A program made the position numbers and the translations under genes. From Escherichia phage Phi1: a stretch of 64,000 nucleotides of DNA. The notes beneath the pieces were generated by a model that was not told where the DNA came from, did not search any database, and saw only the letters and a list, made by a program, of their open reading frames with translations. How positions within the stretch are numbered: position 1 is the stretch's first letter; each line of letters opens with the position of its first letter. Positions 9,668 to 61,844 of the stretch are shown here, piece after piece. The stretch is from the sequence record EF437941. One strand, written 5' to 3'.

Positions 9668-10192
9668 TTAGTAGCCGCGTTCTTGACGGGCGAAGTTTTC
9701 AGCATTTTTCAGATAGTACAGAATAAAGAGTTCTTGAGCCTCAATACCCAGCGGGATCATCTTTGACAGAATGAAGTGGATAGCGTCCACAAATTCAAAT
9801 TTCACTTCAAGCTGATCTTCTGGTGACAGTTCAGAGAATTTACGCGCTCGCGCTTCCCCGTGGTTCTTTTTCCACATTTTCCAGATTGCGCTTGCATCTT
9901 TACCGTTGGACATTCCACCCAGCGATGTGTAAAGCTCTCGTGTTTCGTCTGCGATAGCGTCATCCATCCGTTGCATCCAATCCAGCATTTCACCGCAAGT
10001 CTCTAGCTTAGTTGGATTTGGGACCCAATCAAATTTTTCGGATAATGCAACCTGCAAACCAGTTTGCATTTCGAGCATCACCTGAAACGGATCTTTACCT
10101 TCTGCAATCGCGTGATGATATGCGGCGATAGCCGCGTTAATATCTTTTTCGTTAACCAGACCAGCACAAGAATTAAATTCTGACATATTCAC
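9668..10192 (-). CDS. 56: dCTP pyrophosphatase gp56 (MazG-like)
   Basis: 174 aa; C-terminal LYYLKNAENFARQERGY and central MazG-like helices match T4 gp56 as remembered. Confidence 0.8.
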   Translation of the reverse strand: MNMSEFNSCAGLVNEKDINAAIAAYHHAIAEGKDPFQVMLEMQTGLQVALSEKFDWVPNPTKLETCGEMLDWMQRMDDAIADETRELYTSLGGMSNGKDASAIWKMWKKNHGEARARKFSELSPEDQLEVKFEFVDAIHFILSKMIPLGIEAQELFILYYLKNAENFARQERGY

Positions 10193-14638: not shown

Positions 14639-15709
14639 TTATGCTAACATATCTTCGATTTCTTTGTCAACTGCTTCGTCGCTGATCACTTGCCCCAGCT
14701 TATAATGATCGTTGATTGCTTCGTTAAACTTATCGTTTGTCAGAAGTGGTTTCCAGAACTCAATGCTATTGGTTTCTTTAGCACGGAACTTGCGTTCTTC
14801 GGTTTCCATCTCTCCGGTCTCAGTATTCAGGATTGAACGAGAATACCAGCCGTTTGACGGTTTCACTACCCAGCCTAACTCTACAGCCAACTCCAGCAAA
14901 CCGGAATAAGGATCGATGCCACCGCTAAATGTTACGCTAATCGGGAACTTAGATTTTTCTTTAACGGTTCGTGATTTTTCCGCATTCAGGATAAAATCAT
15001 AACCAGTAATTTCGGTTCCTTCTTTCTGCTGACGACGACCAATAATAAAAACTTCATTGGCTGAATACATTGCGCCAGTACCGCCGGACATAACGGTCTT
15101 ACTAAACATTTCTTGCGTTTCGTAAGTGTGGTTAATAGCGATGCACGGGATATCATTCATAGTCAGATACGGCGTAACCATACGGAACAAGCCTTTAAGT
15201 GCTTTAGCTCGCGTCATATCCTGTGCGGATTTCTCATTAATCGCGTCTTCAACTTCTTTTTTACTTGCTAAGTTACCGATTGAGTCAATAAAGATGATCA
15301 CTTTATCTTCACGGGTAATTTGCTCAAGCTGGTTCATGATTTCAAATTTAAGTTCTTCGATGTTCTTGATTGGAACATGCACCACGCGATCAGGATCTAC
15401 ACCCATAGATTCAAGATAAGCGGATGTAATACCGAACTCAGAATCAAAGAACAAACACGCCGCATCAGGATTCTGTTTCATGTATGCACTAACGCAAGTT
15501 AATCCCATGTTTGATTTAAAGTGCTTAGACGGACCAGCAAAGAAAATCAGACCAGATTGAAAGCCTTTTTTAAGATCACCTGAAAACGCAATATTCAGCA
15601 TCGGGATCTTAGTGCGAGTATTTGTTTTTTCGTTAAAGAAGCTGGATTTAGACAGTACCGCAGTAGTTTTCAGGGTAGAGTTCTTTTTCAGTTTTTCCAG
15701 TACAGACAT
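14639..15709 (-). CDS. uvsX: UvsX recombinase (RecA-like)
   Basis: 356 aa; Walker A GPSKHFKS; RecA core. Confidence 0.9.
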   Translation of the reverse strand: MSVLEKLKKNSTLKTTAVLSKSSFFNEKTNTRTKIPMLNIAFSGDLKKGFQSGLIFFAGPSKHFKSNMGLTCVSAYMKQNPDAACLFFDSEFGITSAYLESMGVDPDRVVHVPIKNIEELKFEIMNQLEQITREDKVIIFIDSIGNLASKKEVEDAINEKSAQDMTRAKALKGLFRMVTPYLTMNDIPCIAINHTYETQEMFSKTVMSGGTGAMYSANEVFIIGRRQQKEGTEITGYDFILNAEKSRTVKEKSKFPISVTFSGGIDPYSGLLELAVELGWVVKPSNGWYSRSILNTETGEMETEERKFRAKETNSIEFWKPLLTNDKFNEAINDHYKLGQVISDEAVDKEIEDMLA

Positions 15710-15720
15710 TATTAATACCT

Positions 15721-15948
15721 CTATTCAGTTAATCCGTAATACTTTAATTGCTTCATTGTTATTCGATCTTTGTAGTGCTCTTGAATTAACTTTTTCATCG
15801 CATCAACATCGATCGTCACAAATACTTCGTTGCTGTGATTTCCGTGAACTTTCTTGAAATGCTCTATGCCTTCCTCACGTTCGCGTTTAATCTTTTCAAT
15901 GTCTCTCATAATATATTTCTCACGTTGGCGGGTATCGTCACCCAACAC
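15721..15948 (-). CDS. hypothetical protein
   Basis: 75-aa ORF between DNA polymerase and uvsX, where T4 carries beta-gt and gene 42. Confidence 0.5.
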   Translation of the reverse strand: MLGDDTRQREKYIMRDIEKIKREREEGIEHFKKVHGNHSNEVFVTIDVDAMKKLIQEHYKDRITMKQLKYYGLTE

Positions 15949-15970
15949 CCGCCATTATACACACTTTATC

Positions 15971-18649
15971 TTAAATGTCAAACAGGTCCGTAAGCGATGC
16001 CACCTTTTCATATTGCAGCTTTGCAGCCGTGGTAATGTTCTCAAGCGGTTTGACGAAAGTCTTATTAAACAACAAAGGCCAGTCTAACCACTTCAACACT
16101 TCTGATTCAATTTCTGGAGGAATACGAGTACCAGACAACCAACCAAAACAGATTTCTCCAAACGGATTTCGATCTTTAAGCGGTACAATCATAACCTTCT
16201 CGCCTTCACGAATCGGATCTAGTCCGAATTTTCGAGCATTACGATTATAACACAATACACTCTTAACCGCATACGGACAACCCTTAATCGGATACCCGTT
16301 TGAATCGCTGTATTTCTGTAGGTTGTTTGCCGATGATACCGCAGCAACCTCAAGATAGTCAAGTTTTCTAAACTCTTGCTCAAAAATACCGTAGTATTCC
16401 TGCAATGACTCTTCACCTTCCTGCAACATACGGCGAATACATTCTTTCAGTGATTTCTGACATGCTTTAGGTGTAGAACTACGCTGTGTTTCCAAACCCA
16501 TGATTTTTAGCTTAGGTTCAGCAAAGCGCGTTCCTTCCATATCCCAAACATTAAGAGCATAGCGTTTTTTACCCGTCCAGAATCCACCGATACCCGCAGA
16601 TTTCAACGGAGGACCAGCAATTGCCTCACGGTCCATAAACATCAAGTGCTCGTAGTTGTTCATGTACTCGCATAACTCGCGATATCCCTTGTCGATAATA
16701 GGTTCCATTCGATGTTTACCGAAATTATCAAGGAAGTCAACAAGTTTTTCGGTATCGTCGAAACGGTCTTCCCCGCCAACCTTATCAATAACATTATTAA
16801 CCAGCACATAAACGGAGTCAGTATCACAATAACGAACATATGCAAAATCGGTTGTTCCGCAAAGCTCGTTTAAGTATTCGTTAATCTTACGCTCAATCCA
16901 CTGAATTGCAAGCTGACCGAACAGTGTGATCGCACTCGCGTTACGGAGATCATAAAAACGGAATTTAGGATTCCCCAACGCACCATAAAGGGAGTTGATC
17001 AAAACTTTACGAGAAAGCTGGTTTGTATTGCACAAGATCGACTCGTCTTTACATTCTTCCAGCAATTTCTCTAAGGCATCTTTACTTAATTCAGAAAGCA
17101 TCGATTTAAACGCTTCATCAAAGTCGTGACGCACTTCAACGCTATAGCTAATGGTTCCCCCATAAACATGATTTTCATCGTGTAGAATCGCTTTACAGAG
17201 TTCAGCATTGCGATCACATGCCAACATCATGTTTTTGTACTGCTTACGCTGATCGAATACCTTTTTAATCTCAATCGGTACGATACCATGAATATCTTTT
17301 CGATACATCCACCCGTTAGGCGAGCAAGAATACTCATCACTAGGACGCGGTGCAGTTTTATTGATATACGCGTGCATCGGTGCAGCATCAAAAGATCCCG
17401 CGATTGTTTCAGGCGAAATATTAACCTGTCGAATAATAGATGGATACAGACTTGTCAAGTCAAAGCTCATCATCCAACGGTAAGCATTCGGCACAGGTTC
17501 TTTTACGAATGCGCCAGGATAAGTCTGCTTCGGCTGTATCTTGTTCTCTGGTACTACTTTACCCTCAGCTTTCAGAGATCCGAAGATAATAGCATCCCAT
17601 ACTTTCATCGGGTTATAAACATGGTTAAATTTAATCTTTGCATAGAAACATAGGCTATACACCAGATCAATAAAACCACGCTTTTTATCAATCGCCAGCA
17701 CACGATCAACGTCGCCGATGTTATAATCGATGTAAAGTTGATGGTTGTCATCACGCAATTTCTTTAACGGACCATCATAATCAACCTTACCGATTCCGGT
17801 CTCATATTCAGCAACATAATCTAATGCATATGTTGGTTGAGTCGTAAAGCTAAATTTCTTGTACAGGTCAATATAATCAAGGCTTTCGATCCCCATGATC
17901 GTAAATGCTTCACGCTCGTTGCCAAAATCATCCTGTGAGATTCGGGATTTAATCTTACCGCACGGGCTTAGACGGTTAGCGGTTCTACTTCCGAACTTAT
18001 TACTGATACGTTTAATGATATATGGAATATCGAATGTTTCTGTGTTCCAGCCAGTGAAACCAACGGGTCGGTTTTCCTCAAAGAATCGGATGTATTCTAA
18101 TAGCAATTCATCTTCTGTGTCATAGACGTTATAAACAACGCGCTCTACAATATCAGGTCGAAGAATAGACTTGCTTGCTTCCCAGATTTCACCGCTTTTT
18201 CCTTTCAAATCAAATACAAAGAAACGATCATGCACGGAATCATAATGCGTAATTGCATCGATAGGATATTTCGCTTCTTCTGGTTTAGGAAATTCCGGTG
18301 CAGTGACCTCGATATCAACCCATGCTACACGGATTTTATTTCGGTCATATCGAATCTCGCCTTTATACGTATCGGACAGATATGAGATGATAAAATCATC
18401 CATCCCTAGTGCCTCTTGCCCCATTTCTCCCATCTTTTTACGCCATTTGTTGGCCTCGTTCATAGATGGGAATTTTTTAGCAATGCAAGGCTTGCCATAG
18501 ATATCTTTATAATTCGTAACCATACCAGGCGCGGCATGATGAAATAAAGTTGGCGTGTATTCAACGTAACGCTCTTGTTCTTGTCCAACATCATCAATAT
18601 AACGCTCGTAGATCTTATCACCCACTCGCTCACATGACAGAAAATACAT
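15971..18649 (-). CDS. 43: DNA polymerase gp43 (family B)
   Basis: exo motifs, DxxSLYPS and YGDTDS polymerase motifs; start set at internal ATG with AAGGAG RBS (MYFLSCERVG). Confidence 0.95.
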   Translation of the reverse strand: MYFLSCERVGDKIYERYIDDVGQEQERYVEYTPTLFHHAAPGMVTNYKDIYGKPCIAKKFPSMNEANKWRKKMGEMGQEALGMDDFIISYLSDTYKGEIRYDRNKIRVAWVDIEVTAPEFPKPEEAKYPIDAITHYDSVHDRFFVFDLKGKSGEIWEASKSILRPDIVERVVYNVYDTEDELLLEYIRFFEENRPVGFTGWNTETFDIPYIIKRISNKFGSRTANRLSPCGKIKSRISQDDFGNEREAFTIMGIESLDYIDLYKKFSFTTQPTYALDYVAEYETGIGKVDYDGPLKKLRDDNHQLYIDYNIGDVDRVLAIDKKRGFIDLVYSLCFYAKIKFNHVYNPMKVWDAIIFGSLKAEGKVVPENKIQPKQTYPGAFVKEPVPNAYRWMMSFDLTSLYPSIIRQVNISPETIAGSFDAAPMHAYINKTAPRPSDEYSCSPNGWMYRKDIHGIVPIEIKKVFDQRKQYKNMMLACDRNAELCKAILHDENHVYGGTISYSVEVRHDFDEAFKSMLSELSKDALEKLLEECKDESILCNTNQLSRKVLINSLYGALGNPKFRFYDLRNASAITLFGQLAIQWIERKINEYLNELCGTTDFAYVRYCDTDSVYVLVNNVIDKVGGEDRFDDTEKLVDFLDNFGKHRMEPIIDKGYRELCEYMNNYEHLMFMDREAIAGPPLKSAGIGGFWTGKKRYALNVWDMEGTRFAEPKLKIMGLETQRSSTPKACQKSLKECIRRMLQEGEESLQEYYGIFEQEFRKLDYLEVAAVSSANNLQKYSDSNGYPIKGCPYAVKSVLCYNRNARKFGLDPIREGEKVMIVPLKDRNPFGEICFGWLSGTRIPPEIESEVLKWLDWPLLFNKTFVKPLENITTAAKLQYEKVASLTDLFDI

Positions 18650-18681
18650 AATATAAACTCCTTCACTTACGAAAGACACTC

Positions 18682-18710
18682 ATTATAGGGGAATCGACTT
18701 AGTTTGTCAA
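18682..18710 (-). promoter_or_regulatory. promoter upstream of gene 43
   Basis: TTGACA-N17-TATAAT on minus strand, about 30 nt before the polymerase ATG. Confidence 0.5.
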
Positions 18711-18731
18711 TACCCCTATCCCATCAGTATC

Positions 18732-19094
18732 TTAGCGTCCGATCTGATATTTCTCGATCAGCGTCCACTCTTCTTTCTGTTTGAAAGACAGTACACGGAA
18801 ATTATTAACTTCGGTAGTTTCAAAATCACTATCAATCAAGGTACACAGATTCCACTGCGCCAGAAGTTTTGCAATGTTATTACGGCGTAATTCATCTTCC
18901 CACGTCATTTTAACACTACGACCATCTAATTTCAACAACTCCTTGAAATGAACGATGTAATAGCGCCCCTTCTTCTGGAGAATATGACAAGACTGATACA
19001 GTGTCTTGTCTCGATTGTTGGCAATGCCGCAGCGGGTTAAAGTTTCCTTAATTTTAAGGAAGTTTTCAGGACTAATCAAATTAATTTCAATCAT
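18732..19094 (-). CDS. regA: translational repressor RegA
   Basis: 120 aa; near-collinear match to T4 RegA as remembered. Confidence 0.9.
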   Translation of the reverse strand: MIEINLISPENFLKIKETLTRCGIANNRDKTLYQSCHILQKKGRYYIVHFKELLKLDGRSVKMTWEDELRRNNIAKLLAQWNLCTLIDSDFETTEVNNFRVLSFKQKEEWTLIEKYQIGR

Positions 19095-19095
19095 T

Positions 19096-19674
19096 TTACC
19101 ACCTTTCTATAATCTTTTTAAGTCGTTTCCTTTCTGTCTGATTCTGAGTAACACCCGCAAAAAGTTCATCGGTCGCATACGGTTTAATGTGCTTCAATAA
19201 CTTGTCCATATATCCCTTTTCATTAGCCAAATCGAGATAAAACCGGGCGTCATCCATATTTACACAATATGCTTTCGCCACTGCCATTAAAACCAATTTT
19301 TGGTCCAATTCTTCTGTTAGTTTAGCCCATTTACCGTATCGTTTCCCCTTAGAAATACTCTGTAAGAGATAATCAAAATGCATTTGATCTGGGAGGCCAT
19401 GACCGATTAAATTCATCACATACGCGCTATATAGACAATCTGCGTGCTGGGAAAGAGCGGTGTTAATCCATCTCTGGTTATATGCAGAATTGTTTCCCAC
19501 ATTAACGCGCTGTTTATCTAAGGTGATATGATCCATCAGAGCAAATAATGCATTGTCGGTTTTCTCGGTGAATGTATCCGCTAATTCAGACACCTTTTCC
19601 CAATCACGAGAGCGCCATGCAATTTCATGCTCGTTTAATTGTGTATCATCTTCACCGAAAAATTGACCTAACAT
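19096..19674 (-). CDS. 62: clamp loader small subunit gp62
   Basis: 192 aa; position between regA and gp44. Confidence 0.8.
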   Translation of the reverse strand: MLGQFFGEDDTQLNEHEIAWRSRDWEKVSELADTFTEKTDNALFALMDHITLDKQRVNVGNNSAYNQRWINTALSQHADCLYSAYVMNLIGHGLPDQMHFDYLLQSISKGKRYGKWAKLTEELDQKLVLMAVAKAYCVNMDDARFYLDLANEKGYMDKLLKHIKPYATDELFAGVTQNQTERKRLKKIIERW

Positions 19675-20648
19675 TATACGAACTCCAATTCAACCATTAA
19701 TTGCATTAACAAAAAGACAATATGAATCTCTTTATCAGCCGCGTGCGCAAACATCTGATTATTTTCACCGATAATCTCAGTGAGACGAATAATAGAAGCT
19801 GGCTTAACTTGAGTATACAACTCATTATAAAGTTTCTTGACAAATTGAGCGTATGTATTGGTATATCGCGGTGCAAGTTTACGCACATTAGCAAACTGTT
19901 TAGTTTTAAGTGCTTCCACCACATCGGTTACTTCGGTATTGCTACTTTCGATAACCATGCTCAATACGCCAGCATCAATTTTACCATGTTTAGCGTAGCG
20001 ATCCAAAAGTTTCATTACGCGCCGGAAGTCTGGAAAGTTCTGCTTAACCAGTTCCGCTAATACGCGCATTTCTTCTACTGGCACACCTTCTTTATCAAGA
20101 ATTGCTTTACACCGGACGATCATTTCTTTCATCATGCGAAGCTGATCATCTTTAGTCGGAGATCCAAACGTGATGGGATCAAATCGAGATCGTAACGCCG
20201 GGATAATACCTTCTAGATCGTTTGCTGTGATAATGAATGTCACGTTGTTTGAGTATGCCTCAGAGAAACTACGCAAGTGTCTTTGAGCGTCAGCTAGCCC
20301 CGCTCGGTCATACTCATCGATAATAACAACTTTGCCTTTTTCTCGTTTTTCTTCATCGAGTGATACACTCTGCGCAAAGCGTGTAATCTCATCGCGGATA
20401 AAATCAATCTTACAATCTGCGCCGTTAACAAACAGATAATCAACACCCACATCTTCGCAAAGCGCCTTAGCAACGGTTGTTTTACCAGTACCCGGCGATG
20501 GGCTATGCAGAATCATTGAAGGGATTCGGCCTTGCTTAACAATCTGCGCGAAGATCTTTTTATCTGCTTCCGGCAGAATACATTCAGAAATTGATTTCGG
20601 ACGGTATTTCTGTTCCCACTGAAACTCATTTTCATTAACACTCAGCAT
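19674..20648 (-). CDS. 44: clamp loader large subunit gp44 (AAA+)
   Basis: Walker A SPSPGTGKTT, DEYD Walker B, SRC motif-like; internal ATG with GAGGTGA RBS. Confidence 0.9.
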   Translation of the reverse strand: MLSVNENEFQWEQKYRPKSISECILPEADKKIFAQIVKQGRIPSMILHSPSPGTGKTTVAKALCEDVGVDYLFVNGADCKIDFIRDEITRFAQSVSLDEEKREKGKVVIIDEYDRAGLADAQRHLRSFSEAYSNNVTFIITANDLEGIIPALRSRFDPITFGSPTKDDQLRMMKEMIVRCKAILDKEGVPVEEMRVLAELVKQNFPDFRRVMKLLDRYAKHGKIDAGVLSMVIESSNTEVTDVVEALKTKQFANVRKLAPRYTNTYAQFVKKLYNELYTQVKPASIIRLTEIIGENNQMFAHAADKEIHIVFLLMQLMVELEFV

Positions 20649-20713
20649 ATAATCACCTCTCACAAATTACATCATTAAAACGGGGAGTATTTACACTCCC
20701 CACAAACATTATA

Positions 20714-21403
20714 TTAGTCGGTGTAGCTGGAGTCAAGGTCACACGCGATCATATAAGATACGGTTTCACTTGCCAGCCATACAGCCTTACGGCGAGTGAA
20801 GCTCAGTTTGTAATCGCCGAAGTCAGTAGCAACCAGTTTCATGTTATCTTTACGAATAAAGAAATGGAAGTCTGCGGTTCCGGTATATTCGCCCATATCA
20901 AGACAAAACATCTCATTAGGATTATTTTTGTCAATCTCTTCCCAGCCTTTGATCATAAGACGACCATCAATCGGCAGAAATTCAAGGCGATCCACTTTAA
21001 GCTGATTGCTCATTTTCATAAGCTGTTTCAGATCGTCGTTGCTCAGTTCGTAATCTACATCGCTTGCAGGTGGAGTAACTCGGCCTTTCGGTGACACGAT
21101 AGCGGCAGCACTAGCACCAGGATAATTAATTTTCAGACGATCATTAGACACACGAATGTTTCCGGTGCGGTCATCAACCGTAATATCTGCTTCATCGCCT
21201 ACCAGATTCAGAATACCCAGGAAAGAGTTAAGATCATAGATCCCAATTTCGTGTTCCAGTTCTTGATTCAGAGTCGCTTCACCATATACAACGTTTGTCA
21301 TGTTTTTGGTGATCAGGACGTTTCCTTTTTTCAGGATGATACCTGGGTTAATAGCGGAAAAGTTTTTCAGGGTAGCAATGGTTTCTTTAGTCAGTTTCAT
21401 CAA
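20714..21403 (-). CDS. 45: sliding clamp gp45
   Basis: 229 aa; position and size. Confidence 0.85.
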   Translation of the reverse strand: MMKLTKETIATLKNFSAINPGIILKKGNVLITKNMTNVVYGEATLNQELEHEIGIYDLNSFLGILNLVGDEADITVDDRTGNIRVSNDRLKINYPGASAAAIVSPKGRVTPPASDVDYELSNDDLKQLMKMSNQLKVDRLEFLPIDGRLMIKGWEEIDKNNPNEMFCLDMGEYTGTADFHFFIRKDNMKLVATDFGDYKLSFTRRKAVWLASETVSYMIACDLDSSYTD

Positions 21404-21430
21404 ATCACCTTTATCATGTTAATCAATTAA

Positions 21431-21808
21431 TTACGGGTTTACTTCGTGTTCGTTACGAATCTTGAGCATTTTGTTTTGGAAGTTTTCCGCAGCTTGCTCA
21501 TCAATATTATGAGTATACTTAAATCCAATGTATGCTGTCAAGTATTGTTGCAGAGCATAGACAGTAACAGGATTCTTTGCGGTCTTCTTGCCTTCTAGAT
21601 ATACCAGATCACCACGAACATCAAACGCAAGTTTACGACGAATCACATTATCAACAAACTCATCAACAACAAAATGCCAAATGTTGCTATCGGTTCCAAT
21701 ATCAAAATTAACCACACAGCCATGTTTGACATAATCAAACGGTATCGGGAATAGTTTATAGTCAAGTTCGATAAACATTAATTGTTCTTTTAAGCTCATA
21801 CGTTTCAT
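21431..21808 (-). CDS. hypothetical protein (rpbA position)
   Basis: ORF downstream of gene 45; start ambiguous. Confidence 0.5.
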   Translation of the reverse strand: MKRMSLKEQLMFIELDYKLFPIPFDYVKHGCVVNFDIGTDSNIWHFVVDEFVDNVIRRKLAFDVRGDLVYLEGKKTAKNPVTVYALQQYLTAYIGFKYTHNIDEQAAENFQNKMLKIRNEHEVNP

Positions 21809-21812
21809 TCTA

Positions 21813-22190
21813 TCACTTCCCATCAGCAATTGCGATCAGACGAGTTACTACTACGCTAGCGGCTTCAATCAGCAGTTCATCAGTGTCAATCTGATAACCC
21901 TTTTCGAGAATATCTTTACCTCGAATAGTTTTAGCGCCTTTAGCAATTGAATCATTATAATACTTGCGCATTGCCGCGATCCATTCTTTTTGCACCATAT
22001 CGTCAATATGCGCGTACAGTTCAAAGCGTGCTTGCTGCGGGATAACCTTCATTTTAGCTTTCTCGCTTTCCGGCATTTGTAGTACCCACGCTTTACGGAT
22101 CTTATTCATTGCTCGGTCAAATTCGAGGCTGGTTTTCTTGTTCTGAATGTCTGCTACAGTAATTTTAGCCAGGTTTGCGGAAGTAGTCAT
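21813..22190 (-). CDS. hypothetical protein
   Basis: ORF 21813..22205 with start moved to ATG after GGAGA RBS. Confidence 0.5.
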   Translation of the reverse strand: MTTSANLAKITVADIQNKKTSLEFDRAMNKIRKAWVLQMPESEKAKMKVIPQQARFELYAHIDDMVQKEWIAAMRKYYNDSIAKGAKTIRGKDILEKGYQIDTDELLIEAASVVVTRLIAIADGK

Positions 22191-22220
22191 AATATTAATC
22201 TCCAAAATAAAATCAGTATA

Positions 22221-22451
22221 TCACGTTCTAAAGTTTGTTGCAACCCCAGCATCAGGGTAATCAAGTTTATCTAAGTTGGGGACCAGCATAAACTCATGAT
22301 GACGACAAGACAACATTTTTGTTATGTCTTCATCGCTGTATATGCTGTTTTTCATATCCCCCATACTAACTACATATTCTTCACCGGAATATAGATTGAT
22401 TAAGGTATACAATTCTAACTCCGGCTGCGTTACTCTGTCAAATGTTAACAT
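22221..22451 (-). CDS. hypothetical protein
   Basis: 76-aa ORF. Confidence 0.45.
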   Translation of the reverse strand: MLTFDRVTQPELELYTLINLYSGEEYVVSMGDMKNSIYSDEDITKMLSCRHHEFMLVPNLDKLDYPDAGVATNFRT

Positions 22452-24120
22452 TCATTTCAGTGAATCGCCCACGTTTAACCATCTTGAGATGACGGCTAAA
22501 ATCATCAGGGTTATGGTCACGATGGCTGATAATATACACGTTATCATCTAACTTGTCAATGATGGAATCAAGTGCTTTTACGCCTTGAACGTCCGTAGCC
22601 CCATCATAAATTTCGTCGAGTACCAACAAAGAAATATTAGTACCAGATACCTTACCAGCAACATCACGCCATGTAAAGAGCATCGCAAGATCAATACGTG
22701 CTTTTTCGCCTTGACTGAATGATGTATACGAAAACGATTCACGCCCCCGTGATTTGATTGTTTCGTTAAACTCTTCATCTAGCGTAAAGATATAATCCGC
22801 TTCCATGATATCAAGATAATACGCAATCCGATCATTGAAATATGGAATATATTTCTTGACGATAGACGCCTTAACACCGGAATCTTTCAACATTTCTGTT
22901 ACAAATCCACGGTGATATTTTTCAAGAACTAGCTTTGATTTTTCATTAGTGATCTCTACCAGTTCGTGTTCCAGTTTAGCAAGTTCTTCGGAATTGTCAA
23001 CCCTTTCTTTTTGCAATTCTTGCATTGCTTTCTGGATCTGCTTAGCACGACCTACAGATGCCGTTAAATTCGCTCTCTGTAACTCTATAGCGCGTTTAAT
23101 TTCCAAGACCTTAGTTTGTGCTGTCTGGAAAGAATTGGCCTTCTCTGCGTACTCTACGCGTTTCTCGTCAATCAGAGACAGTTTATGTTCTGCTTGTGCT
23201 TTTTGTTCGCGTACAGCTTGATCATTACCCTGAATGATCGGTTGTGTGCACGTAGGACAGATCCCGCCTTTCTCATGCATATGAATAACACGGTCAAAGT
23301 TCTGGATCTGCGCACCAATCTGTGCGATGGCCGTATTAATTTTAGCCAATGCCGCGCTAGGATCTTCCGGCATAACAACAGCCAATAGCTCATCGGTCAA
23401 GCGCGTTTCTTCGGCTTTAAACGCTTTAGCTGATTCTACTTCTTTCTCGTACATATTCTGCAAACGCTGTAGATTCTCGGCACTCGCCTTGCTAGCGTCT
23501 TCTATGTACTTTTTATGAGTGTTGATTTGTTGCTGAACGTGATTAGCTTTCATTTCCTGCATTTGGATATTCTGGGTAATCTCGCGCACATACGCTTTAT
23601 TCAGTTTATCCATTTCGCCTAGCGTAGCAATATCTAATAGGTCTTCTACCAGTTTACGGCGACCCGCTGCCGGAAGACTCATAAACGGAACATAACCAGC
23701 AGTGCCTAAAACAACGATCTGTTTGAAGCTGGCTAGGTTCATGCCTATGATACCTTCAAAATATTCCTGAAAGTCTTTGGTGCTTGCGCTCTCGTCGATC
23801 TTTTGACCGTCGCGATGCACTTCGAATACTTCCGGCTTTTGACCACGTTTGATATAAAACTCTTTCCCGTCCAGTTCAAACCAGACTTCGACTAACAGTT
23901 TCTTTTTGTGAACGCTGTTAATCAATTGGCCTTTCTTGATACTACGAAACGGTTTACCGAACAACACAAAGCAAAGCGCCTCGATCATTGTTGATTTACC
24001 AGCACCGTTAACACCAGTGATTAGTGTCTTTTTGAATCCGTCTAGCTGAATCTCTACAGGTTCAGCACCCACGCTCATTATATTTTGATAGCGCAAGGTT
24101 TTAAAATTTAACTTTGCCAT
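22438..24120 (-). CDS. 46: recombination endonuclease subunit gp46 (Rad50/SbcC-like ATPase)
   Basis: 560 aa; Walker A GVNGAGKST, coiled coil with CPTC zinc hook, signature and D-loop at C-terminus. Confidence 0.9.
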   Translation of the reverse strand: MAKLNFKTLRYQNIMSVGAEPVEIQLDGFKKTLITGVNGAGKSTMIEALCFVLFGKPFRSIKKGQLINSVHKKKLLVEVWFELDGKEFYIKRGQKPEVFEVHRDGQKIDESASTKDFQEYFEGIIGMNLASFKQIVVLGTAGYVPFMSLPAAGRRKLVEDLLDIATLGEMDKLNKAYVREITQNIQMQEMKANHVQQQINTHKKYIEDASKASAENLQRLQNMYEKEVESAKAFKAEETRLTDELLAVVMPEDPSAALAKINTAIAQIGAQIQNFDRVIHMHEKGGICPTCTQPIIQGNDQAVREQKAQAEHKLSLIDEKRVEYAEKANSFQTAQTKVLEIKRAIELQRANLTASVGRAKQIQKAMQELQKERVDNSEELAKLEHELVEITNEKSKLVLEKYHRGFVTEMLKDSGVKASIVKKYIPYFNDRIAYYLDIMEADYIFTLDEEFNETIKSRGRESFSYTSFSQGEKARIDLAMLFTWRDVAGKVSGTNISLLVLDEIYDGATDVQGVKALDSIIDKLDDNVYIISHRDHNPDDFSRHLKMVKRGRFTEMNVNI

Positions 24121-24364
24121 TAATCCACTCCGCGATCACACATTCCATAATATTAAATGCTAACACATCTTCATCAATGTTGTAAACACTTGCCGCCTTC
24201 ACTTTAACTAGTGTGTCTTTGCGATCTGGCAACATGATCACATAATCCAGTGTCGCAGGATCATATGTCATAAAGGGATCAATGTAAATCCCTTTATTCA
24301 ATGCCAGATATTCGCGAAGACCTTCTATAACCCTGTGTCTAAGGTAGGTCATCGATAGAATCAT
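24101..24364 (-). CDS. hypothetical protein
   Basis: 87-aa ORF. Confidence 0.45.
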   Translation of the reverse strand: MILSMTYLRHRVIEGLREYLALNKGIYIDPFMTYDPATLDYVIMLPDRKDTLVKVKAASVYNIDEDVLAFNIMECVIAEWINGKVKF

Positions 24365-24957
24365 TTTAGTTTATGTTCCTCTAAAAATTCTTCAATTTCA
24401 CCTTGCAGGTCTTCCGCTTGTTGTTCCAGAATATCGCGAAATTCACCTACAGTCAAGCGGTAATCACATTTCACCAGTCGATGTGGGAGAATATACCCTT
24501 TATACATCGTCTCTGACGCTTCCAGGAATACCCCACTATGCATGACAGAGATCCAACCTGTTAACGTCAATGGAGTATTAGGGAAATAATACTTGCTGGA
24601 TTGTTTCCACTGGACGAAAGCACCATATACAATCGGATTATATTCACCAACCACACTCTTAATAATGGATTCTACTTTGTCTTTTACAAAGTCGCCAATG
24701 CCCATAGTCACCATCAATTCTTGTGGGTGAATCACTTTAAGGTAACGACGGTAGCCGTCATCATACCACATCTTAACAACTGGCTGACCCCACATTTTAG
24801 CAATACGCGCTTTCAGATAACCATAGATCGGATTCTTGTAATATGATTGTTTTATTGTGTATGCGTGCACCAATTCAATAAAATATTCCATTGCTATCGA
24901 ATCAGGATCAGCCGCGACCATAGTCGTATTCATAATATGTTCCTCGTTCAATTTCAT
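24361..24957 (-). CDS. hypothetical protein
   Basis: 198-aa ORF. Confidence 0.5.
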   Translation of the reverse strand: MKLNEEHIMNTTMVAADPDSIAMEYFIELVHAYTIKQSYYKNPIYGYLKARIAKMWGQPVVKMWYDDGYRRYLKVIHPQELMVTMGIGDFVKDKVESIIKSVVGEYNPIVYGAFVQWKQSSKYYFPNTPLTLTGWISVMHSGVFLEASETMYKGYILPHRLVKCDYRLTVGEFRDILEQQAEDLQGEIEEFLEEHKLK

Positions 24958-25225
24958 ATTGTTTCAGGTCTTCTAAAAGTTCATCCACTGCTTGTTTCAG
25001 CACATGACGCAGCGTAAAGTAATAGCTTTCATCAAATTCTATTTCCGCGCGAGGAATAGAGCGAAACTTACACTTAACGGTAGTATCAGTGAGTCGCTTT
25101 TCGACCATCATCCGAACTTCTTCATGCTCTTTGGAATACCATACATCAACGGAGATCCCCTTACGTCGAGCAAACATAGGCAATGCCGCATTAAATTCCA
25201 TTACCTTTTGTGCAAGTGTTTTCAT
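24908..25225 (-). CDS. hypothetical protein
   Basis: 105-aa ORF. Confidence 0.45.
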   Translation of the reverse strand: MKTLAQKVMEFNAALPMFARRKGISVDVWYSKEHEEVRMMVEKRLTDTTVKCKFRSIPRAEIEFDESYYFTLRHVLKQAVDELLEDLKQYEIERGTYYEYDYGRG

Positions 25226-25485
25226 CGTACAGACCCCATAGATCCACGCGCAATAACATTCTGGGTAATATCAGCAACCTTACGGGATACGATGTTTGTT
25301 AGCCCCTCTTTGGTGATATTTTCACGATCAAATGGGATTTCGTCATGAGTCCACAAACCATAGTTAGATCGAAATGATAGCATATACTGACCATCTCGCA
25401 CAACTTCAAATACATGGATCTTAGTGAATTTCGATAAACCTTCGTTGATTTCTTTCAGTGCATTAGCAATCATAACAACCTCCAA
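25222..25485 (-). CDS. hypothetical protein
   Basis: 87-aa ORF. Confidence 0.45.
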   Translation of the reverse strand: MEVVMIANALKEINEGLSKFTKIHVFEVVRDGQYMLSFRSNYGLWTHDEIPFDRENITKEGLTNIVSRKVADITQNVIARGSMGSVR

Positions 25486-25527
25486 TCAATTTTTAGAGAG
25501 TATAACGGGGATTTCTCCCCGCGTCAA

Positions 25528-26553
25528 CTAACTTTTTGCGCTATTTACTTCGGCTAAAAGTTCATCAGAAATACGCTTAACTGCCGCAAGTTCTTCCGGT
25601 TCTAGGTTTTGTTCTTCCAGATATTCGTAGACCATCTGAATAGTGCTTTTAACTTCAATAACACCTGTTTCCTGTGATGCGCTACTCTCCAGCTTATGGA
25701 CCACTTTTAGCTTGTGTACAACGGCCTCTAACGCGCTTTCTAACTTACTTAACCCATTATCAGCAACCGTTGCGATAAGACGCACACTAAGCCCCTTAAA
25801 GCGTTCTACATCGATTTTATCATCTGACGGGTAAGTGATACGCACATGATAAGTTTTGTCATTCTGGATAAACTCTTTTTTGTGTGTATCGGTATCGAAT
25901 ACCCAAAACCCACGCGGATCGTTTTCGTCACCCGCCGTTAGTGTGTATGGTGTACCAATATACGTTACGTTACCGCCATCACTGATAGTATGAAAGTGAC
26001 CGGAAAACACTTCACGGTATTTCTTTAGGAAGTCCGCGCTATAACCTTCGGATTTTAGACCTTTATAGAAATAGTAACCGGACAATTCCCAATGGCCTAC
26101 ACAATATTCGCTGAATGAGTTTTGAATAAACTCTAAAATCTCTGATTTGTTATCATCACAAAACCACGGGAACAGATCAAATGATACACCATCAAAGGTG
26201 AATGTTTCCGGCTTATCAATAACTTTAATACAATCATACTGGCTTAACACTTCACGCGGTGCGTTAGGCTGGATCTTGTTTCGTTTAAACATATCATGAT
26301 TCCCAACCGTGATATAACAAGTAATACCAGCCTCTTCCAGTAGCGGGATAATTTTCGTTCTATTAAAACGCATAGTTGCATGTGTGATTGCTTTTCGGCA
26401 ATCAAACCAGTCCCCTGTCTGAATCCATACCTTAATATTATGCTCTTTGGAGTATTCAACCGCTTTCTTGATGGTATCAAGAATATACTCATGCACCCAC
26501 GGATCATCGCCACCGATACCAGTATGCAGATCACCTAAAAGCAAAATTTTCAT
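25528..26553 (-). CDS. 47: recombination nuclease gp47 (Mre11/SbcD-like)
   Basis: 341 aa; calcineurin-like phosphoesterase motifs GDLH, GDWFD, GNHD. Confidence 0.9.
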   Translation of the reverse strand: MKILLLGDLHTGIGGDDPWVHEYILDTIKKAVEYSKEHNIKVWIQTGDWFDCRKAITHATMRFNRTKIIPLLEEAGITCYITVGNHDMFKRNKIQPNAPREVLSQYDCIKVIDKPETFTFDGVSFDLFPWFCDDNKSEILEFIQNSFSEYCVGHWELSGYYFYKGLKSEGYSADFLKKYREVFSGHFHTISDGGNVTYIGTPYTLTAGDENDPRGFWVFDTDTHKKEFIQNDKTYHVRITYPSDDKIDVERFKGLSVRLIATVADNGLSKLESALEAVVHKLKVVHKLESSASQETGVIEVKSTIQMVYEYLEEQNLEPEELAAVKRISDELLAEVNSAKS

Positions 26554-26599
26554 AGTCTCTTCCTCTCTTCGTTTTCGATGCTCTCACTATATCACAGAA

Positions 26600-26625
26600 A
26601 AATAAAAAGGGAAACCCCTTTCAGA
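26600..26625 (-). terminator. weak hairpin/terminator
   Basis: AAAGGGGTTTCCCTTT followed by T-run on minus strand. Confidence 0.3.
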
Positions 26626-26643
26626 GTCTCCCTTATAAAGCCA

Positions 26644-26958
26644 TTACAGCATACTTAATACCGTTTGCCTTGTACTAATCCACATAGCAGAAAGCAGTTC
26701 TGGCGTGTGTGGCTGTTTGTAGATATCACGTAACTTTCCGATAGCGTAGATATACGCATCACGGTTATCATCGATGATAGCTTGTTCAGCCCACCGCTTA
26801 AGGCGTGCAATCTCTCGCGAGTTCTTACGCAAGATCTTTTCCGCTTTCTTAGCGGCTTTAGCCTCTAGTTCTGCTTGTACTTTGTCTACTTCATTCACTG
26901 CAATCTGGTCATGCTGTTCATCGTAAGTCATGTTATTTTCCTTCCGGGATATAGTCAA
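26644..26958 (-). CDS. hypothetical protein
   Basis: 104-aa ORF. Confidence 0.5.
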   Translation of the reverse strand: MTISRKENNMTYDEQHDQIAVNEVDKVQAELEAKAAKKAEKILRKNSREIARLKRWAEQAIIDDNRDAYIYAIGKLRDIYKQPHTPELLSAMWISTRQTVLSML

Positions 26959-27166
26959 TTATTAAAGAAAATTCATCTTCTGATACATTATAGCTATGTG
27001 AGATTGTACCCGTCAAGACCTCAAGATCCGGTGATTTGATATTGCACGGATCGATAATCACCGGAACACCGCAATCTCTCAAAAATAATTTGGCGAAATA
27101 CGGCACAAGGTCAGTTTCAAACTCGGCTTCTTCCAGCAAACGGGAAATGTTAATTTTCAATCTCAT
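26933..27166 (-). CDS. hypothetical protein
   Basis: 77-aa ORF. Confidence 0.45.
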
Positions 27167-27683
27167 AAAATTGGTCCAGGCTAGGCAATTCCTCGGTCAA
27201 TACATCTTCAACCTTTGGCGCTTTCGGTTTATTGACCGATTCCTCGTAGTTGTTGATTTTATCGTAAATGTCCTGTATGAATGCCTCATCAGCAATCTGG
27301 CACATATCAGCGTCGCGTTCGTCATATACATGATGCACAAAATATTTGTATTTTGCGGCTGTCGCTGTTCTTTCTTTTTTAATGCGCTGCACAAAAGCAT
27401 TAAAGCACGCTTGCGTGATGTAAGCATGAGGATTTTTATACTTTGTCTCGTCAAAATTAATCAAACCCTTGACCGCCGCTTCGATTCCGTCGTCGATCAT
27501 TTCTTCGCGCCATGTTTGACTATAACCAGAAAAGTTAAAACGCCGTGATAGATTTTTAGAGATTTGCATAATTGCCAGGCCGATTTGATCGCTCATTGGC
27601 ACTTGCCGACCTTCTGCTGCAATTCGTTGTTTCCAACGGCAAATTTCTTCGTAAAGCTCTTTATTGTTTACATAATCAGACAT
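27150..27683 (-). CDS. 55: late-transcription sigma factor gp55
   Basis: 177 aa; strong similarity to T4 gp55 as remembered ([31 protein letters not shown]). Confidence 0.9.
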
Positions 27684-27723
27684 TTCGCACCCTCGCTATT
27701 ATTTAGGAAATAACCCTTTCGGG

Positions 27724-30392: not shown

Positions 30393-30393
30393 A

Positions 30394-31218: not shown

Positions 31219-31230
31219 AATATATTCCCC

Positions 31231-31695: not shown

Positions 31696-31699
31696 AATA

Positions 31700-32227: not shown

Positions 32228-32237
32228 AATAATCACC

Positions 32238-36579: not shown

Positions 36580-36607
36580 ATTATAGCATACTCCCTTTGC
36601 ATGTCAA
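36580..36607 (-). promoter_or_regulatory. early promoter (PeSL-type)
   Basis: TTGACA ... TATAAT inside GGGAGTATGCTATAATACTCCC hairpin. Confidence 0.5.
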
Positions 36608-39535: not shown

Positions 39536-39543
39536 GTTATACC

Positions 39544-40356
39544 TCAATCTACGTTAGTTACATAAACTTCTTGCGTATCAGAAGACTTGCCACCTGAACG
39601 ATCTAGGCAATAGGTCTTATTCAACAAGACGCAGTTTAAATCATTCCGCTTGATAAAGTCAAGAAGATGATCATTTGCCTTTCCCTTATGATGCGTGACA
39701 TTACTTATACCAAACTGAAAACCACGCGCCATAATAGATTCTACCCACTGATAGAATTTAATCTCTTCCTCGTCACTCCAGAACTTATTATATTCCGCAG
39801 AAGTGATAAGGTACGGCGGGTCCAAATAAACGAAATCACCTGGCAAGATCTCGATCTCGTCATAACGACCGGACGTAAAACTGATTCGACCGTCTTTGTT
39901 TTCTTCCTTAAAATTCAGGACACGCTCTACCGCGTTTTCGTTAAAAGTCCGGCGACCAAAATTAGCATTAAATTCGCCCTTCCTGTTATGGCGGTTAATG
40001 TTGCTAAAACTGTGCTGAATCAGAACAAACAGAGATAGCGGATCTGGATTCTCATTATACTTCTTACGGAATGCCATGTAAGCATCTTTATCATCACGAG
40101 ACAAATCATTCTCGGCAATAATCCGCTTGATCGTAGAAACCGGATCAGGACACTCGTCAATCGCTTTGTACGCTTCAATTAAGCGGTGATCATAGTCATT
40201 AGCCAGCACATCCCCTTCGACGTACAGAGACACGCTCAAGCCGCCACAAAAGGCATCAACAAAGCGGTTATAGTGCTTAGGGAAATACTTACTAACACCT
40301 GGCAATAGCTTTTCCTTATTGCCAGTATAGGGAATTAAACCTAATGCTTTCTTCAT
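39544..40356 (-). CDS. dam: DNA adenine methyltransferase Dam
   Basis: 270 aa; FCGG SAM-binding motif and DPPY catalytic motif; collinear with T4 Dam as remembered. Confidence 0.9.
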   Translation of the reverse strand: MKKALGLIPYTGNKEKLLPGVSKYFPKHYNRFVDAFCGGLSVSLYVEGDVLANDYDHRLIEAYKAIDECPDPVSTIKRIIAENDLSRDDKDAYMAFRKKYNENPDPLSLFVLIQHSFSNINRHNRKGEFNANFGRRTFNENAVERVLNFKEENKDGRISFTSGRYDEIEILPGDFVYLDPPYLITSAEYNKFWSDEEEIKFYQWVESIMARGFQFGISNVTHHKGKANDHLLDFIKRNDLNCVLLNKTYCLDRSGGKSSDTQEVYVTNVD

Positions 40357-61187: not shown

Positions 61188-61844
61188 TTAAATGTTCGCG
61201 AGAATCGCGCTTTCAAATTCTTCTAATGTGCCATTATTTATAATGATGGTTTCACCGTCAATAGGCAAAATTCCTTTTTCGGTGGAGTGAGTCGATACAA
61301 TACCAGTATCACGCTGAATATGCAACACCTTAGCACCCATAGAACGCATGAGAGCAATTTCAATAGGCTGACGCACATCAACCACTACAAAATACCCTTC
61401 TTCATTTTTGCGCTTCATAAACTCATCCACAAAGAGATTACACCAATAAAGCGGATTGATCAAGTTAACCATTATATCAGTACCGAGAGTGGTTAACATG
61501 AGACGAATAGACCAGACGTTATTATGTTTTTCGCCGATCTCATTAACGACCTTGTAAATCTCAGCCAGACGATCACAAGTAAAGGAGCTACCGCCATACT
61601 TCGAATCTAGCATAAGCAGACACTGAATAAACCACTTATGCGCGGTGTAGGTATCAATACCTAGATCGGCTTCTCTGTCACGCCCTAACCCGTCAAAGTC
61701 AAGATAAGTCAGACCTAAGTCTGGTTGACATTCGCATAAGATTTCTTTGATCGGTGCTGCCAGTTGATAACTGTGTCCATCAATGATTAACGCGGCAGTG
61801 TCTTTTCCTACTCGCTTTTTACCACAAAGTGCAATCAATTTCAT
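61188..61844 (-). CDS. 1: deoxynucleoside monophosphate kinase gp1
   Basis: 218 aa; P-loop GKKRVGKDT, TLGTD, VVVDVRQ; collinear with T4 gp1 as remembered. Confidence 0.85.
   Translation of the reverse strand: MKLIALCGKKRVGKDTAALIIDGHSYQLAAPIKEILCECQPDLGLTYLDFDGLGRDREADLGIDTYTAHKWFIQCLLMLDSKYGGSSFTCDRLAEIYKVVNEIGEKHNNVWSIRLMLTTLGTDIMVNLINPLYWCNLFVDEFMKRKNEEGYFVVVDVRQPIEIALMRSMGAKVLHIQRDTGIVSTHSTEKGILPIDGETIIINNGTLEEFESAILANI

Follow-up and report, generated by a model that had tools for sequence, protein, structure and literature searches.

The T4 hmC/glucosylation system, with which this locus is compared, comprises genes 56, 42 and 1, alpha-gt, beta-gt, alc, denA and denB. Nearly all phages related to T4 have gene 56, with or without gene 42, and the presence of the former without the latter is a pairing already documented (PMC2993671 Table 4; PMC8056088). 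Phages of the RB49 type have been published as a group that has neither gene 42 nor glucosyltransferase genes and whose cytosine is unmodified (PMC4041780; PMC2993671). Published tables give 42, alpha-gt, beta-gt, alc and denB as absent from these phages and 56 and denA as kept, and three sources agree on the missing modification genes (PMC2993671 Table 4; PMC12115623 Table 4; PMC4041780 Fig. S1), the first of which records the absence of gene 42, alc and denB. For the genus Krischvirus, dCTPase and denA are scored as present and hmC as absent, as are alc, denB and ndd, which sets the genus apart from T4 (PMC12115623 Table 4). RB49 DNA is cut by the cytosine-modification-sensitive enzymes HpaII and NheI (PMC4041780), and canonical cytosines were found in TB34 by HPLC-MS (PMC13390438).

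Two further systems are instructive. In T4GT7-type mutants (42-, 56-, denB-, alc-), T4-type machinery copies and packages cytosine DNA, as in Krischvirus, and phages of both kinds can carry out generalized transduction (PMC12115623; PMC8056088). According to Kutter 1975, as related in PMC8056088, and to the T4GT7 genotype given in PMC12115623, cytosine DNA in T4 requires inactivation of gene 56. RB43-type phages (Pseudotevenvirus) resemble the DNA studied here in having no gene 42 or glucosyltransferase gene and in having gp56 and denA homologues; they are transducing and encode their own DNA methyltransferase (PMC8056088; PMC12115623 Table 4). They differ in belonging to another genus, in their larger genome and in retaining ndd (PMC12115623 Table 4).

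Identity of the window and gene order

The window, by which we mean the whole stretch analysed, is the first 64 kb of Phi1; genome-wide absence of hmC genes was assessed on its relatives. It is the arm that runs from rIIA to gene 2 in an RB49-like phage of the T4 type (Krischvirus), which very probably does without the hmC pathway and has ordinary-cytosine DNA. Nucleotide identity to RB49, GEC-3S, MIZ4, SAP and TB34, all of the genus Krischvirus, is 97-98%. For positions 15000-28000 there were 58 matching records (95-99% identity), 57 of which spanned 80% or more of the query, and 50-60 Krischvirus genomes including RB49 are 97-98% identical over segments of 13 kb and 25 kb; RB49 is 97.0% identical over 99% of positions 28001-53000. 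The best genome match to the window stands at 98.0%, and none was identical among the genomes compared. The complete GEC-3S genome (163,424 bp) is colinear with the window and 97.5% identical to it, and the coordinates of the two run in parallel from rIIA (position 1) onwards.

Three approaches were used to check the order of the genes: a listing of ORFs, tblastn with 25 landmark proteins from T4, and comparison with the GEC-3S annotation. All genes described here lie on the minus strand. The T4 landmarks map in T4 order at 32-65% identity, with the relocated Dam as the exception, and the core genes flanking both positions of interest are arranged as in T4. Gene order is identical to that of the 'pseudo-T-even' Krischvirus phages RB49, phi1, JSE and GEC-3S from rIIA through gene 55 and beyond, and the RB49-type relatives share with the window a single small ORF between uvsX and gene 43, two small ORFs between genes 47 and 55, gp56 and Dam. 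Differences among them are at the level of strains: GEC-3S has an HNH homing endonuclease between nrdC and dam that is absent from the window, as is the insertion, annotated with HNH endonuclease features, by which the DNA polymerase gene of MIZ4, ECD7, kvi and Cognac is interrupted.

In T4 the order at the beta-gt/gene 42 position is uvsX-segA-b-gt-42-imm-imm.1-43 (T4 annotation). In the window, uvsX (14639..15709; 63% identity to T4 UvsX, E 2.5e-151, tblastn), annotated at the equivalent position in GEC-3S, and the gene 43 DNA polymerase (15971..18679; 55% identity over 903 aa, E 0, tblastn; likewise annotated in GEC-3S, with the start used in relatives corresponding to about 18649) enclose a sole ORF at 15721..15948. 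This ORF encodes 75 aa from a GTG start, or 62 aa from the ATG annotated in relatives. It belongs to phrog_12120 (function unassigned; E 7e-42), is specific to the phage group of Phi1, has no Pfam match and resembles none of the T4 genes segA, b-gt, 42, imm and imm.1.

The second position lies between gene 47 (25528..26553; 56% identity to T4 gp47, E 3.6e-115, tblastn) and the late sigma factor gene 55 (27150..27683; 61%, E 1.8e-68, tblastn), where the T4 annotation reads 47-47.1-a-gt-mobB-a-gt.2-a-gt.3-a-gt.4-a-gt.5-55. The window has here a homologue of T4 a-gt.4 (DUF2654; 26644..26958; BLASTP 43% identity, E 1e-19; Pfam PF10849, E 1.7e-22) and one of a-gt.5 (DUF5491; 26933..27166; BLASTP 32% identity, E 5e-11; phrog_1169, E 4e-29), the latter matching Pfam PF17595 at E 4e-4, below the curated cut-off. 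Since these two neighbours are kept, alpha-gt is cleanly missing from its position. At lower position numbers, four small ORFs (24101..25485; 87, 198, 105 and 87 aa) separate gene 47 from gene 46, which encodes the SbcC-like recombination nuclease subunit (22438..24120; 51% identity to T4 gp46, E 0, tblastn) that accompanies the SbcD-like gp47. They fall in PHROGs 14972, 16328, 15856 and 15867, all of Krischvirus type and without assigned function, and gave neither a Pfam match nor a tblastn match to T4 46.1 or 46.2; they stand in for those two genes and are not modification enzymes.

A preliminary description of this DNA had noted a lone 75-aa ORF in the first gap, small ORFs only in the second, and a gp56-like dCTPase together with a Dam methylase. 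Each observation was borne out, the proteins being 49% and 46% identical, respectively, to their T4 counterparts.

Search for a hydroxymethylase and glucosyltransferases

The dCMP hydroxymethylase encoded by gene 42 is a member of the thymidylate-synthase superfamily with Asp at the base-specifying position. Searches of the whole 64-kb window by tblastn with T4 gp42, beta-gt and alpha-gt returned nothing better than E 0.2 (best value 1.2 for gp42 and 0.2-5 for the glucosyltransferases). As the same run detected gp56 (9671-10186; 49%, E 1e-50) and Dam (39553-40347; 46%, E 6e-65) as positive controls, a gene 42 or glucosyltransferase homologue of the usual divergence would have been seen. Pfam scans of 47 window ORFs revealed no domain of the thymidylate-synthase family or of glycosyltransferases, and those of nine further GEC-3S ORFs from outside the window no glycosyltransferase or additional thymidylate-synthase-family domain (56 ORFs in total).

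In the complete GEC-3S genome, alpha-gt and beta-gt had no match at E <= 0.01, and the sole match of T4 gp42 was the td thymidylate synthase (E 2e-4). This protein of 407 aa gives a full PF00303 match, has the dUMP-type Asn in its 'PFNVASY' motif and is the only member of its family encoded there. The T4 queries detected no pseudogene remnants of 42 or of either glucosyltransferase gene in the window or in GEC-3S, and no alc or denB product is annotated anywhere in GEC-3S. The larger ORFs without annotation were considered as disguised glycosyltransferases and all rejected: the 489-aa ORF after gene 55 is SF2/DEAD-helicase-like, a 274-aa ORF is made up of repeated phrog_5347/goF-like domains and a 392-aa ORF is goF-like; GEC-3S BN201_0241 has CapR and zinc-ribbon domains, and BN201_0263 a weak LprI match and nothing else. 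With gene 42 and both glucosyltransferases absent, it is therefore DNA with ordinary cytosine that is very probably replicated and packaged.

Palindrome avoidance and DNA methylation

The composition of the window points in the same direction. Palindromes of 6 bp containing C/G are present at 0.58 of expectation, as against 0.90 in T4 (syntenic 50 kb) and 0.61 across GEC-3S as a whole, whereas non-palindromic 6-mers stand at 1.006; palindromes and non-palindromes differ with p = 7.5e-22 (Mann-Whitney). The window has no copy of fifteen palindromes for which five or more are expected, including the EcoRI, HindIII and BamHI sites. Restriction-site avoidance is a feature of the window and not of T4, and this depletion argues for cytosines exposed to type II restriction. 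It provides a new and cheap argument, drawn from sequence alone, that the cytosines of this lineage have had a long history of exposure to restriction enzymes. As protection against restriction, strong selection against restriction-site palindromes would take the place of hypermodification.

Methylation may provide additional protection. A Dam-type N6-adenine DNA methyltransferase is encoded at 39544..40356 (46% identity to T4 Dam, E 6e-71; Pfam MethyltransfD12 PF02086, E 8e-31), after nrdC and not beside gene 56 as in T4. The catalytic DPPY motif ('YLDPPYL') and the AdoMet motif FxGG ('FVDAFCGGLS') are conserved when the protein is aligned to its T4 counterpart, and we assume by homology that the enzyme is GATC-specific. 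GATC is not avoided in the window (377 observed, 353 expected), which fits protection by Dam. Together with two further methyltransferase genes located elsewhere in close relatives, Dam could serve an anti-restriction function.

Retention of gp56 and the nucleotide pathway

The window shares with the T4 system gp56, gp1 and Dam, and the relatives of Phi1 share cd, td, frd and denA as well; T4 differs in having the dCMP hydroxymethylase and both glucosyltransferases, all three of which are missing here. The gp56 homologue (9668..10192), a member of the dCTPase/dUTPase family of all-alpha NTP pyrophosphatases, directly adjoins the primase gene 61 and is 49% identical to T4 gp56 over its full length (E 3e-60) and about 51% identical to a Pseudotevenvirus gp56 (P0062). 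It scores 24.5 bits against Pfam dUTPase_2 (PF08761; cut-off 22.9) and agrees with a 36-member family alignment at each of its 24 invariant columns, among them the conserved acidic metal-binding residues D82, E83, E86, E129, E133 and D136. The AF2 model is all-helical with a pLDDT of 93.6. A phmmer search of PDB sequences gave no matches, and to our knowledge no structure or substrate complex of gp56 exists. A second T4 nucleotide-pathway enzyme kept without gene 42 is the gene 1 dNMP kinase homologue (61188..61844; Pfam DNMK PF21448, E 6.5e-68), annotated in GEC-3S as 'putative dNMP kinase'.

A gp56 with every family-invariant residue in place, alongside replication that depends on dCTP, counts against the cytosine-DNA reading. 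T4 must lose gene 56 to make cytosine DNA, whereas Krischvirus keeps it, which would imply a difference in kinetics, regulation or pool context. The retained gp56 and gp1 dNMP kinase, with cd, td, frd and nrd in relatives, would contribute to the supply and balance of nucleotide pools and not to cytosine exclusion. Under this scheme gp56 would act mainly as a dUTPase, supplying dCMP/dUMP for the dTMP synthesis that a genome of 60% A+T requires, and the dCTP pool would not be emptied because the dCTPase activity of gp56 would be insufficient or would be offset by re-phosphorylation.

The protein might instead be a relic of an hmC-using ancestor that lost 42, gt, alc and denB secondarily, gp56 being kept only because it is a dUTPase too. 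The a-gt.4 and a-gt.5 homologues sit exactly at the position of the T4 alpha-gt module, gp56, gp1, cd and denA are retained, and several distant T4-type lineages carry gene 42 (PMC2993671 Table 4). We nevertheless consider this history doubtful. Alpha-gt is confined to T-even phages, gene 56 is far more widely distributed than 42, extending to RB43-type and other phages that have no gene 42 (PMC2993671 Table 4), and this distribution fits an ancestral gp56 with the hmC module as a later gain; nor could pseudogene remnants of 42 or gt be detected in the window or in GEC-3S. The relic proposal is about the past and not about what the protein does now, and it can stand alongside the explanation that Phi1 DNA contains ordinary cytosine.

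The report of modified cytosine in SAP

One study stands against this explanation: the Krischvirus SAP was reported to contain 5-hmdC and alpha-gentiobiosyl-hmdC by HPLC-MS and to be BrxU-sensitive, and no responsible genes were found (PMC13390438, 2026). SAP is 99.96% identical to TB34 and 96-97% identical to the window, whose exact arrangement it shares at both gene positions. All Krischviruses, or only certain ones such as SAP, might hypermodify cytosine by an unrecognised pathway that would reside among the function-unassigned ORFs and take over the role of the missing T4 genes; the window has dozens of such ORFs, and an intact gp56 would suit a phage that excludes cytosine. More broadly, some RB49-like phages could carry hmC or glycosyl-hmC despite having none of the known hydroxymethylases and DNA glycosyltransferases, either through a hidden pathway or with modified precursors and enzymes that the host or a co-infecting T-even phage supplies. 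If SAP-type modification were real, the intact gp56 would be a visible remnant of cytosine exclusion.

We regard the unrecognised pathway as very improbable, and the broader version of hidden or borrowed modification as equally so. The SAP profile, approximately one third hmC and two thirds alpha-gentiobiosyl-hmC, is identical to the one found in seven T6-like Tequatrovirus phages belonging to the same collection, whereas its near-identical twin TB34 is unmodified (PMC13390438). The listed differences between SAP and TB34 consist, apart from C>T changes, largely of 1-bp indels, which would shift the reading frame of essential genes (DNA polymerase, UvsX, clamp, gp47, topoisomerase and NrdB); they look like assembly errors, and the two genomes are therefore effectively the same. 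Restriction-site avoidance in SAP (0.61) is as strong as in the window and would not be maintained were every cytosine glucosylated. The digestion of RB49 DNA by HpaII and NheI (PMC4041780) also stands against such a pathway, and no TS, Tet/JBP or glycosyltransferase domain occurs in any of the window's function-unassigned ORFs, few of them being long enough. The SAP result is most likely explained by a mixed or swapped stock.

In the same comparison, the SNPs between SAP and TB34 are all C>T or G>A, and all three that were placed fall on the central base of CCSGG/CCWGG, which may hint at a methylated motif. At two of the three placed positions the SAP allele is also that of the window and GEC-3S, which suggests that the TB34 assembly is the error-prone one.

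Another very improbable alternative is that the hydroxymethylase and glucosyltransferase genes have moved beyond the window: mosaicism and gene movement are features of T4-type genomes, Dam having been relocated here, a gp38-like adhesin gene sits in the early region of the window and the last ~100 kb of Phi1 lie beyond the sequence examined, but the complete GEC-3S genome has a true thymidylate synthase as its only TS-family gene and no glucosyltransferase match, and published surveys of Krischvirus genomes contain no hmC gene (PMC12115623 Table 4; PMC2993671 Table 4; PMC13390438). The preliminary description had offered either modification genes outside the window or DNA that is unmodified or differently modified, as reported for RB49-like phages; the genome-wide search for gene 42 and glucosyltransferase homologues that it proposed, run on GEC-3S, and the literature speak against the former, and the latter stands. 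Its comparison with RB49-like phages proved apt, the window being itself from an RB49-like Krischvirus (97-98% identical to RB49, GEC-3S, MIZ4 and others).

Conclusions

The absence of the T4 cytosine-modification genes from the Phi1 window is confirmed as a correct observation, one already known for RB49-like phages. Because it is the textbook answer for these phages, nothing new follows from it for the window. The state of cytosine modification decides whether a phage is sensitive to type I-III or to type IV restriction (McrBC, GmrSD, BrxU) and influences how readily its DNA can be sequenced and cloned. The capacity for generalized transduction likewise depends on it, a point of relevance to the safety of phage therapy (PMC12115623).

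Gene content at the hydroxymethylase and glucosyltransferase loci

Landmark genes were placed by tblastn of 25 proteins from the T4 record against the window. This located uvsX (14645-15694, 63% identity), gene 43 (15980-18646, 55%), gene 46 (22453-24108, 51%), gene 47 (25618-26553, 56%) and gene 55 (27162-27677, 61%), all on the minus strand, with regA, 62, 44, 45 and rpbA in the same order as in T4. The T4 interval uvsX-segA-b-gt-42-imm-imm.1-43 is represented in the window by a single small ORF (15721-15948, minus strand), 75 aa long from a GTG start and 62 aa in the annotation of relatives, for which a Pfam scan returned no domain and which is assigned to a PHROG lacking functional annotation. 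From the T4 interval 47-47.1-a-gt-mobB-a-gt.2-a-gt.3-a-gt.4-a-gt.5-55 the window keeps two ORFs, homologues of a-gt.4 (26644-26958, minus strand; 43% identity, E 1e-19; DUF2654) and a-gt.5 (26933-27166, minus strand; 32%, E 5e-11). The preliminary description, which had reported only a 75-aa ORF in the first interval and only small ORFs in the second, is accurate on both counts. Judged from the sequence, alpha-gt is cleanly lacking at its slot, and what lies on either side of that slot is conserved.

Two features adjoin these intervals. Gene 43 is uninterrupted in the window (15971-18679, minus strand), and the match to it in MIZ4, MIZ5, ECD7, kvi, Cognac and PTE-Eco09 is split by an insertion of 1.1-1.7 kb, with the DNA polymerase annotated as two parts and, in several of these relatives, an HNH endonuclease annotated under the match; gene 43 of JSE has been mentioned as carrying a putative intron (PMC2993671). 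Next to gene 55, where T4 has only small 55.x ORFs, lies a 489-aa ORF (27724-29193, minus strand; phrog_2467) with a weak N-terminal match to DEAD/SF2 helicases (PF00270, E 3e-6).

Search for cytosine modification genes

No match to T4 gp42 (dCMP hydroxymethylase), beta-gt or alpha-gt was found in the whole 64-kb window (tblastn, best E 0.2-5). The same run recovered, as positive controls, the gp56-like dCTPase (9671-10186; 49%, E 1e-50) and the Dam methylase (39553-40347; 46%, E 6e-65) that had been listed from the sequence. The search was extended to the complete genome of GEC-3S, a colinear relative (163,424 bp, assembled from stretches L001, L003, L004 and L007), in which T4 gp42 matched td alone (E 2e-4, 29% over 77 aa) and neither alpha-gt nor beta-gt gave a match at E <= 0.01. 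This gene encodes a full-length thymidylate synthase of family PF00303 (E 2e-83). A single Asn/Asp residue sets base specificity in the thymidylate synthase/dCMP hydroxymethylase family; the GEC-3S protein carries the dUMP-specifying Asn (PFNVASY) and T4 gp42 has Asp at the equivalent place (RNDYAW). The annotation of GEC-3S contains nothing resembling a hydroxymethylase, glycosyltransferase, alc or denB, and Pfam detected no thymidylate synthase-family or glycosyltransferase domain in 47 window ORFs and nine GEC-3S ORFs outside the window. The td gene (L004 43447-44670, outside the window) encodes 407 aa, including an insertion of ~130 aa that divides the PF00303 match into profile positions 1-109 and 110-266.

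Larger unannotated ORFs considered as disguised glycosyltransferases were assigned elsewhere: the 489-aa ORF is SF2-helicase-like, one larger GEC-3S ORF encodes a CapR/zinc-ribbon protein, and a further set encodes phrog_5347 or goF-like repeat proteins. This last set includes four tandem paralogues between nrdH and nrdG (166, 274, 159 and 178 aa), all phrog_5347 and all without a Pfam match on scan. The 274-aa member holds two copies of the domain, which recurs in a 392-aa 'goF-like' protein; together these ORFs occupy 29916-32236 and 36604-37782 on the minus strand.

Several other genes were recognized in the window, all on the minus strand. The early hyperplastic region holds a full-length gene for a gp38-type tail-fibre adhesin (44989-45765; Pfam GP38, E 1.8e-70, plus Gp38_N), already labelled '38' in the RB49 record. 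The tail-fibre genes lie far away from it, and the GEC-3S annotation shows no gp38 in the interval from gene 37 to the holin gene. Three accessory genes encode an Acb1 anti-CBASS phosphodiesterase homologue (60428-60898; PF23474, E 1.5e-51), a Macro-domain protein (49740-50195; PF01661, E 6e-7) and a small glycyl-radical 'spare part' protein (53318-53734; PF01228, E 1.5e-16).

Relation to RB49-like phages

Megablast of window positions 15000-28000 matched 58 phage records at 95-99% identity, all of them RB49-like coliphages of the genus Krischvirus, and 57 of the 58 cover at least 80% of the query. Identities are 98.0% for MIZ4, 97.5% for GEC-3S, 97.4% for SAP and TB34 and 97.1% for RB49, with FL38 also matched; positions 28001-53000 gave the same picture of relatives (RB49, 97.0% over 99% of the query). 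Starting at rIIA, the window follows the numbering of the GEC-3S RefSeq record from the first base onward, and it therefore represents the opening 64 kb of a Krischvirus genome in conventional orientation. The minus strand carries nearly all genes, and G+C content is ~40%.

The gene distribution in this group has been documented repeatedly. Gene 42 occurs in T-even, JS98, RB69, CC31, Acinetobacter and some Aeromonas phages and not in the RB49 type, alc and denB have 'the same distribution as gene 42', T-evens alone have alpha-gt, and almost every T4 relative has gene 56 (Petrov et al. 2010, PMC2993671 Table 4). A 2025 survey scored Krischvirus as positive for dCTPase and denA and negative for hmC, denB, ndd and alc (PMC12115623 Table 4). 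RB49 is without hydroxymethylase and beta-gt, and HpaII and NheI digest its DNA but not that of T4 (Yaung et al. 2014, PMC4041780). DenA and dCTPase-dUTPase homologues persist in the RB43 and RB49 groups, neither of which has an enzyme for base modification (PMC8056088). Both the absence and its twist, the presence of gp56, were therefore already established; the missing modification genes are a known property of RB49-like phages, to which the window adds no new element. The GEC-3S search and this literature together support the second interpretation offered initially, namely unmodified or differently modified DNA as reported for RB49-like phages.

Restriction-site avoidance

Observed and expected counts of 6-bp palindromes were compared under a maximal-order Markov model. 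For C/G-containing palindromes the ratio is 0.58 in the window (64 kb), 0.61 in whole GEC-3S, 0.61 in the syntenic 50 kb of SAP and 0.90 in the syntenic first 50 kb of T4; non-palindromic 6-mers in the window stand at 1.006. Window z-scores are lower for palindromes than for non-palindromes (Mann-Whitney p = 7.5e-22), and of the palindromes for which 5 or more copies are expected, 15 have none, among them GAATTC, AAGCTT, GGATCC, GGTACC, CCATGG, GCATGC, CAGCTG and CCGCGG. No palindrome is absent from T4 by the same threshold. Palindrome avoidance is expected of a phage whose cytosines lie open to type II restriction and would not persist in a genome with every C glucosylated; the pattern here thus probably reflects exposed cytosines. 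GATC counts in the window are not below expectation (377 observed, 353 expected), but T4 1-50000 (stretch L006) shows ~3-fold depletion of GATC (59 observed, 170 expected), even though Dam is encoded by both phages. The undepleted GATC fits Dam methylation.

Conflicting report on the base composition of phage SAP

A 2026 paper assigned canonical cytosine to the Krischvirus TB34, and 5-hmdC plus alpha-gentiobiosyl-hmdC with BrxU sensitivity to SAP, which is 99.96% identical to TB34 and whose modification pathway its authors call unknown (PMC13390438). The arrangement of SAP at both slots is exactly that of the window. The likeliest explanation, we infer, is a mixed or swapped SAP stock: seven T6-like Tequatrovirus phages from the same collection have an identical modification profile, the SAP sequence has window-like restriction-site avoidance, and RB49 and TB34 are experimentally unmodified. 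The variants separating SAP from TB34 are mostly 1-bp indels, the rest being C>T or G>A (PMC13390438 Table S5), and the indels would put DNA polymerase, UvsX, the clamp, gp47, topoisomerase and NrdB out of frame. Frameshifts of this kind and the C>T pattern point to assembly errors, so that the two genomes are effectively identical, which likewise favours a stock problem. The SNPs are all C>T or G>A, and the three that were placed hit the central base of CCSGG/CCWGG (window gp44 c.156, ~20493; dam c.57, ~40300; 392-aa ORF c.368), the SAP allele being shared by the window and GEC-3S at two of the three. A systematic sequencing error in one of the assemblies, possibly at a methylated motif, is suggested. 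Cytosine modification in SAP by a genuinely cryptic pathway is very improbable.

Methylation and nucleotide metabolism without the hydroxymethylase branch

The phage most likely builds ordinary C-containing DNA and relies for anti-restriction on site avoidance plus methylation. The DPPY and AdoMet motifs of the window Dam are intact, and GEC-3S has two more genes annotated 'DNA methyltransferase' outside the window; a 'DNA-cytosine methyltransferase' has been mentioned in the RB49 group (PMC8056088). One of the two (L003 32656-33495, 279 aa), among baseplate wedge genes, matches Pfam MTS, Eco57I and N6_Mtase, of amino-methyltransferase type; the other (L004 23848-24564, 238 aa) has no Pfam match. 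The dam gene directly follows nrdC in the window (39254-40356) and adjoins gene 56 in T4; in GEC-3S an HNH homing endonuclease gene is inserted between nrdC and dam (L001 39270-41101).

T4-type nucleotide enzymes in the window comprise gp56, gp1 (61188-61844, minus strand; PF21448), tk and nrdD/G/H/C, and relatives add cd, td, frd and nrdAB; these would form a precursor-supply network minus the hydroxymethylase branch. Across a family alignment of 36 sequences the gp56 homologue keeps 24 of 24 invariant columns, among them two acidic clusters (D82/E83/E86 and E129/E133/D136), and its model is all-helical (pLDDT 93.6); by alignment and model, this protein is not decaying. Its sequence places it in the all-alpha NTP-pyrophosphatase superfamily (PF08761, above cut-off), for which a fold search is only suggestive. 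A title (Kutter 1975, in PMC8056088) and the T4GT7 genotype (in PMC12115623) indicate that T4 makes cytosine DNA only with gene 56 knocked out. We therefore infer that in Krischvirus, with a genome of 60% A+T, gp56 may serve chiefly in two capacities, as a dUTPase and as a supplier of dCMP/dUMP to the dTMP pathway, and that it probably has too little dCTPase activity to starve replication. The residual interest of these phages lies in this gp56 paradox and in the SAP anomaly.
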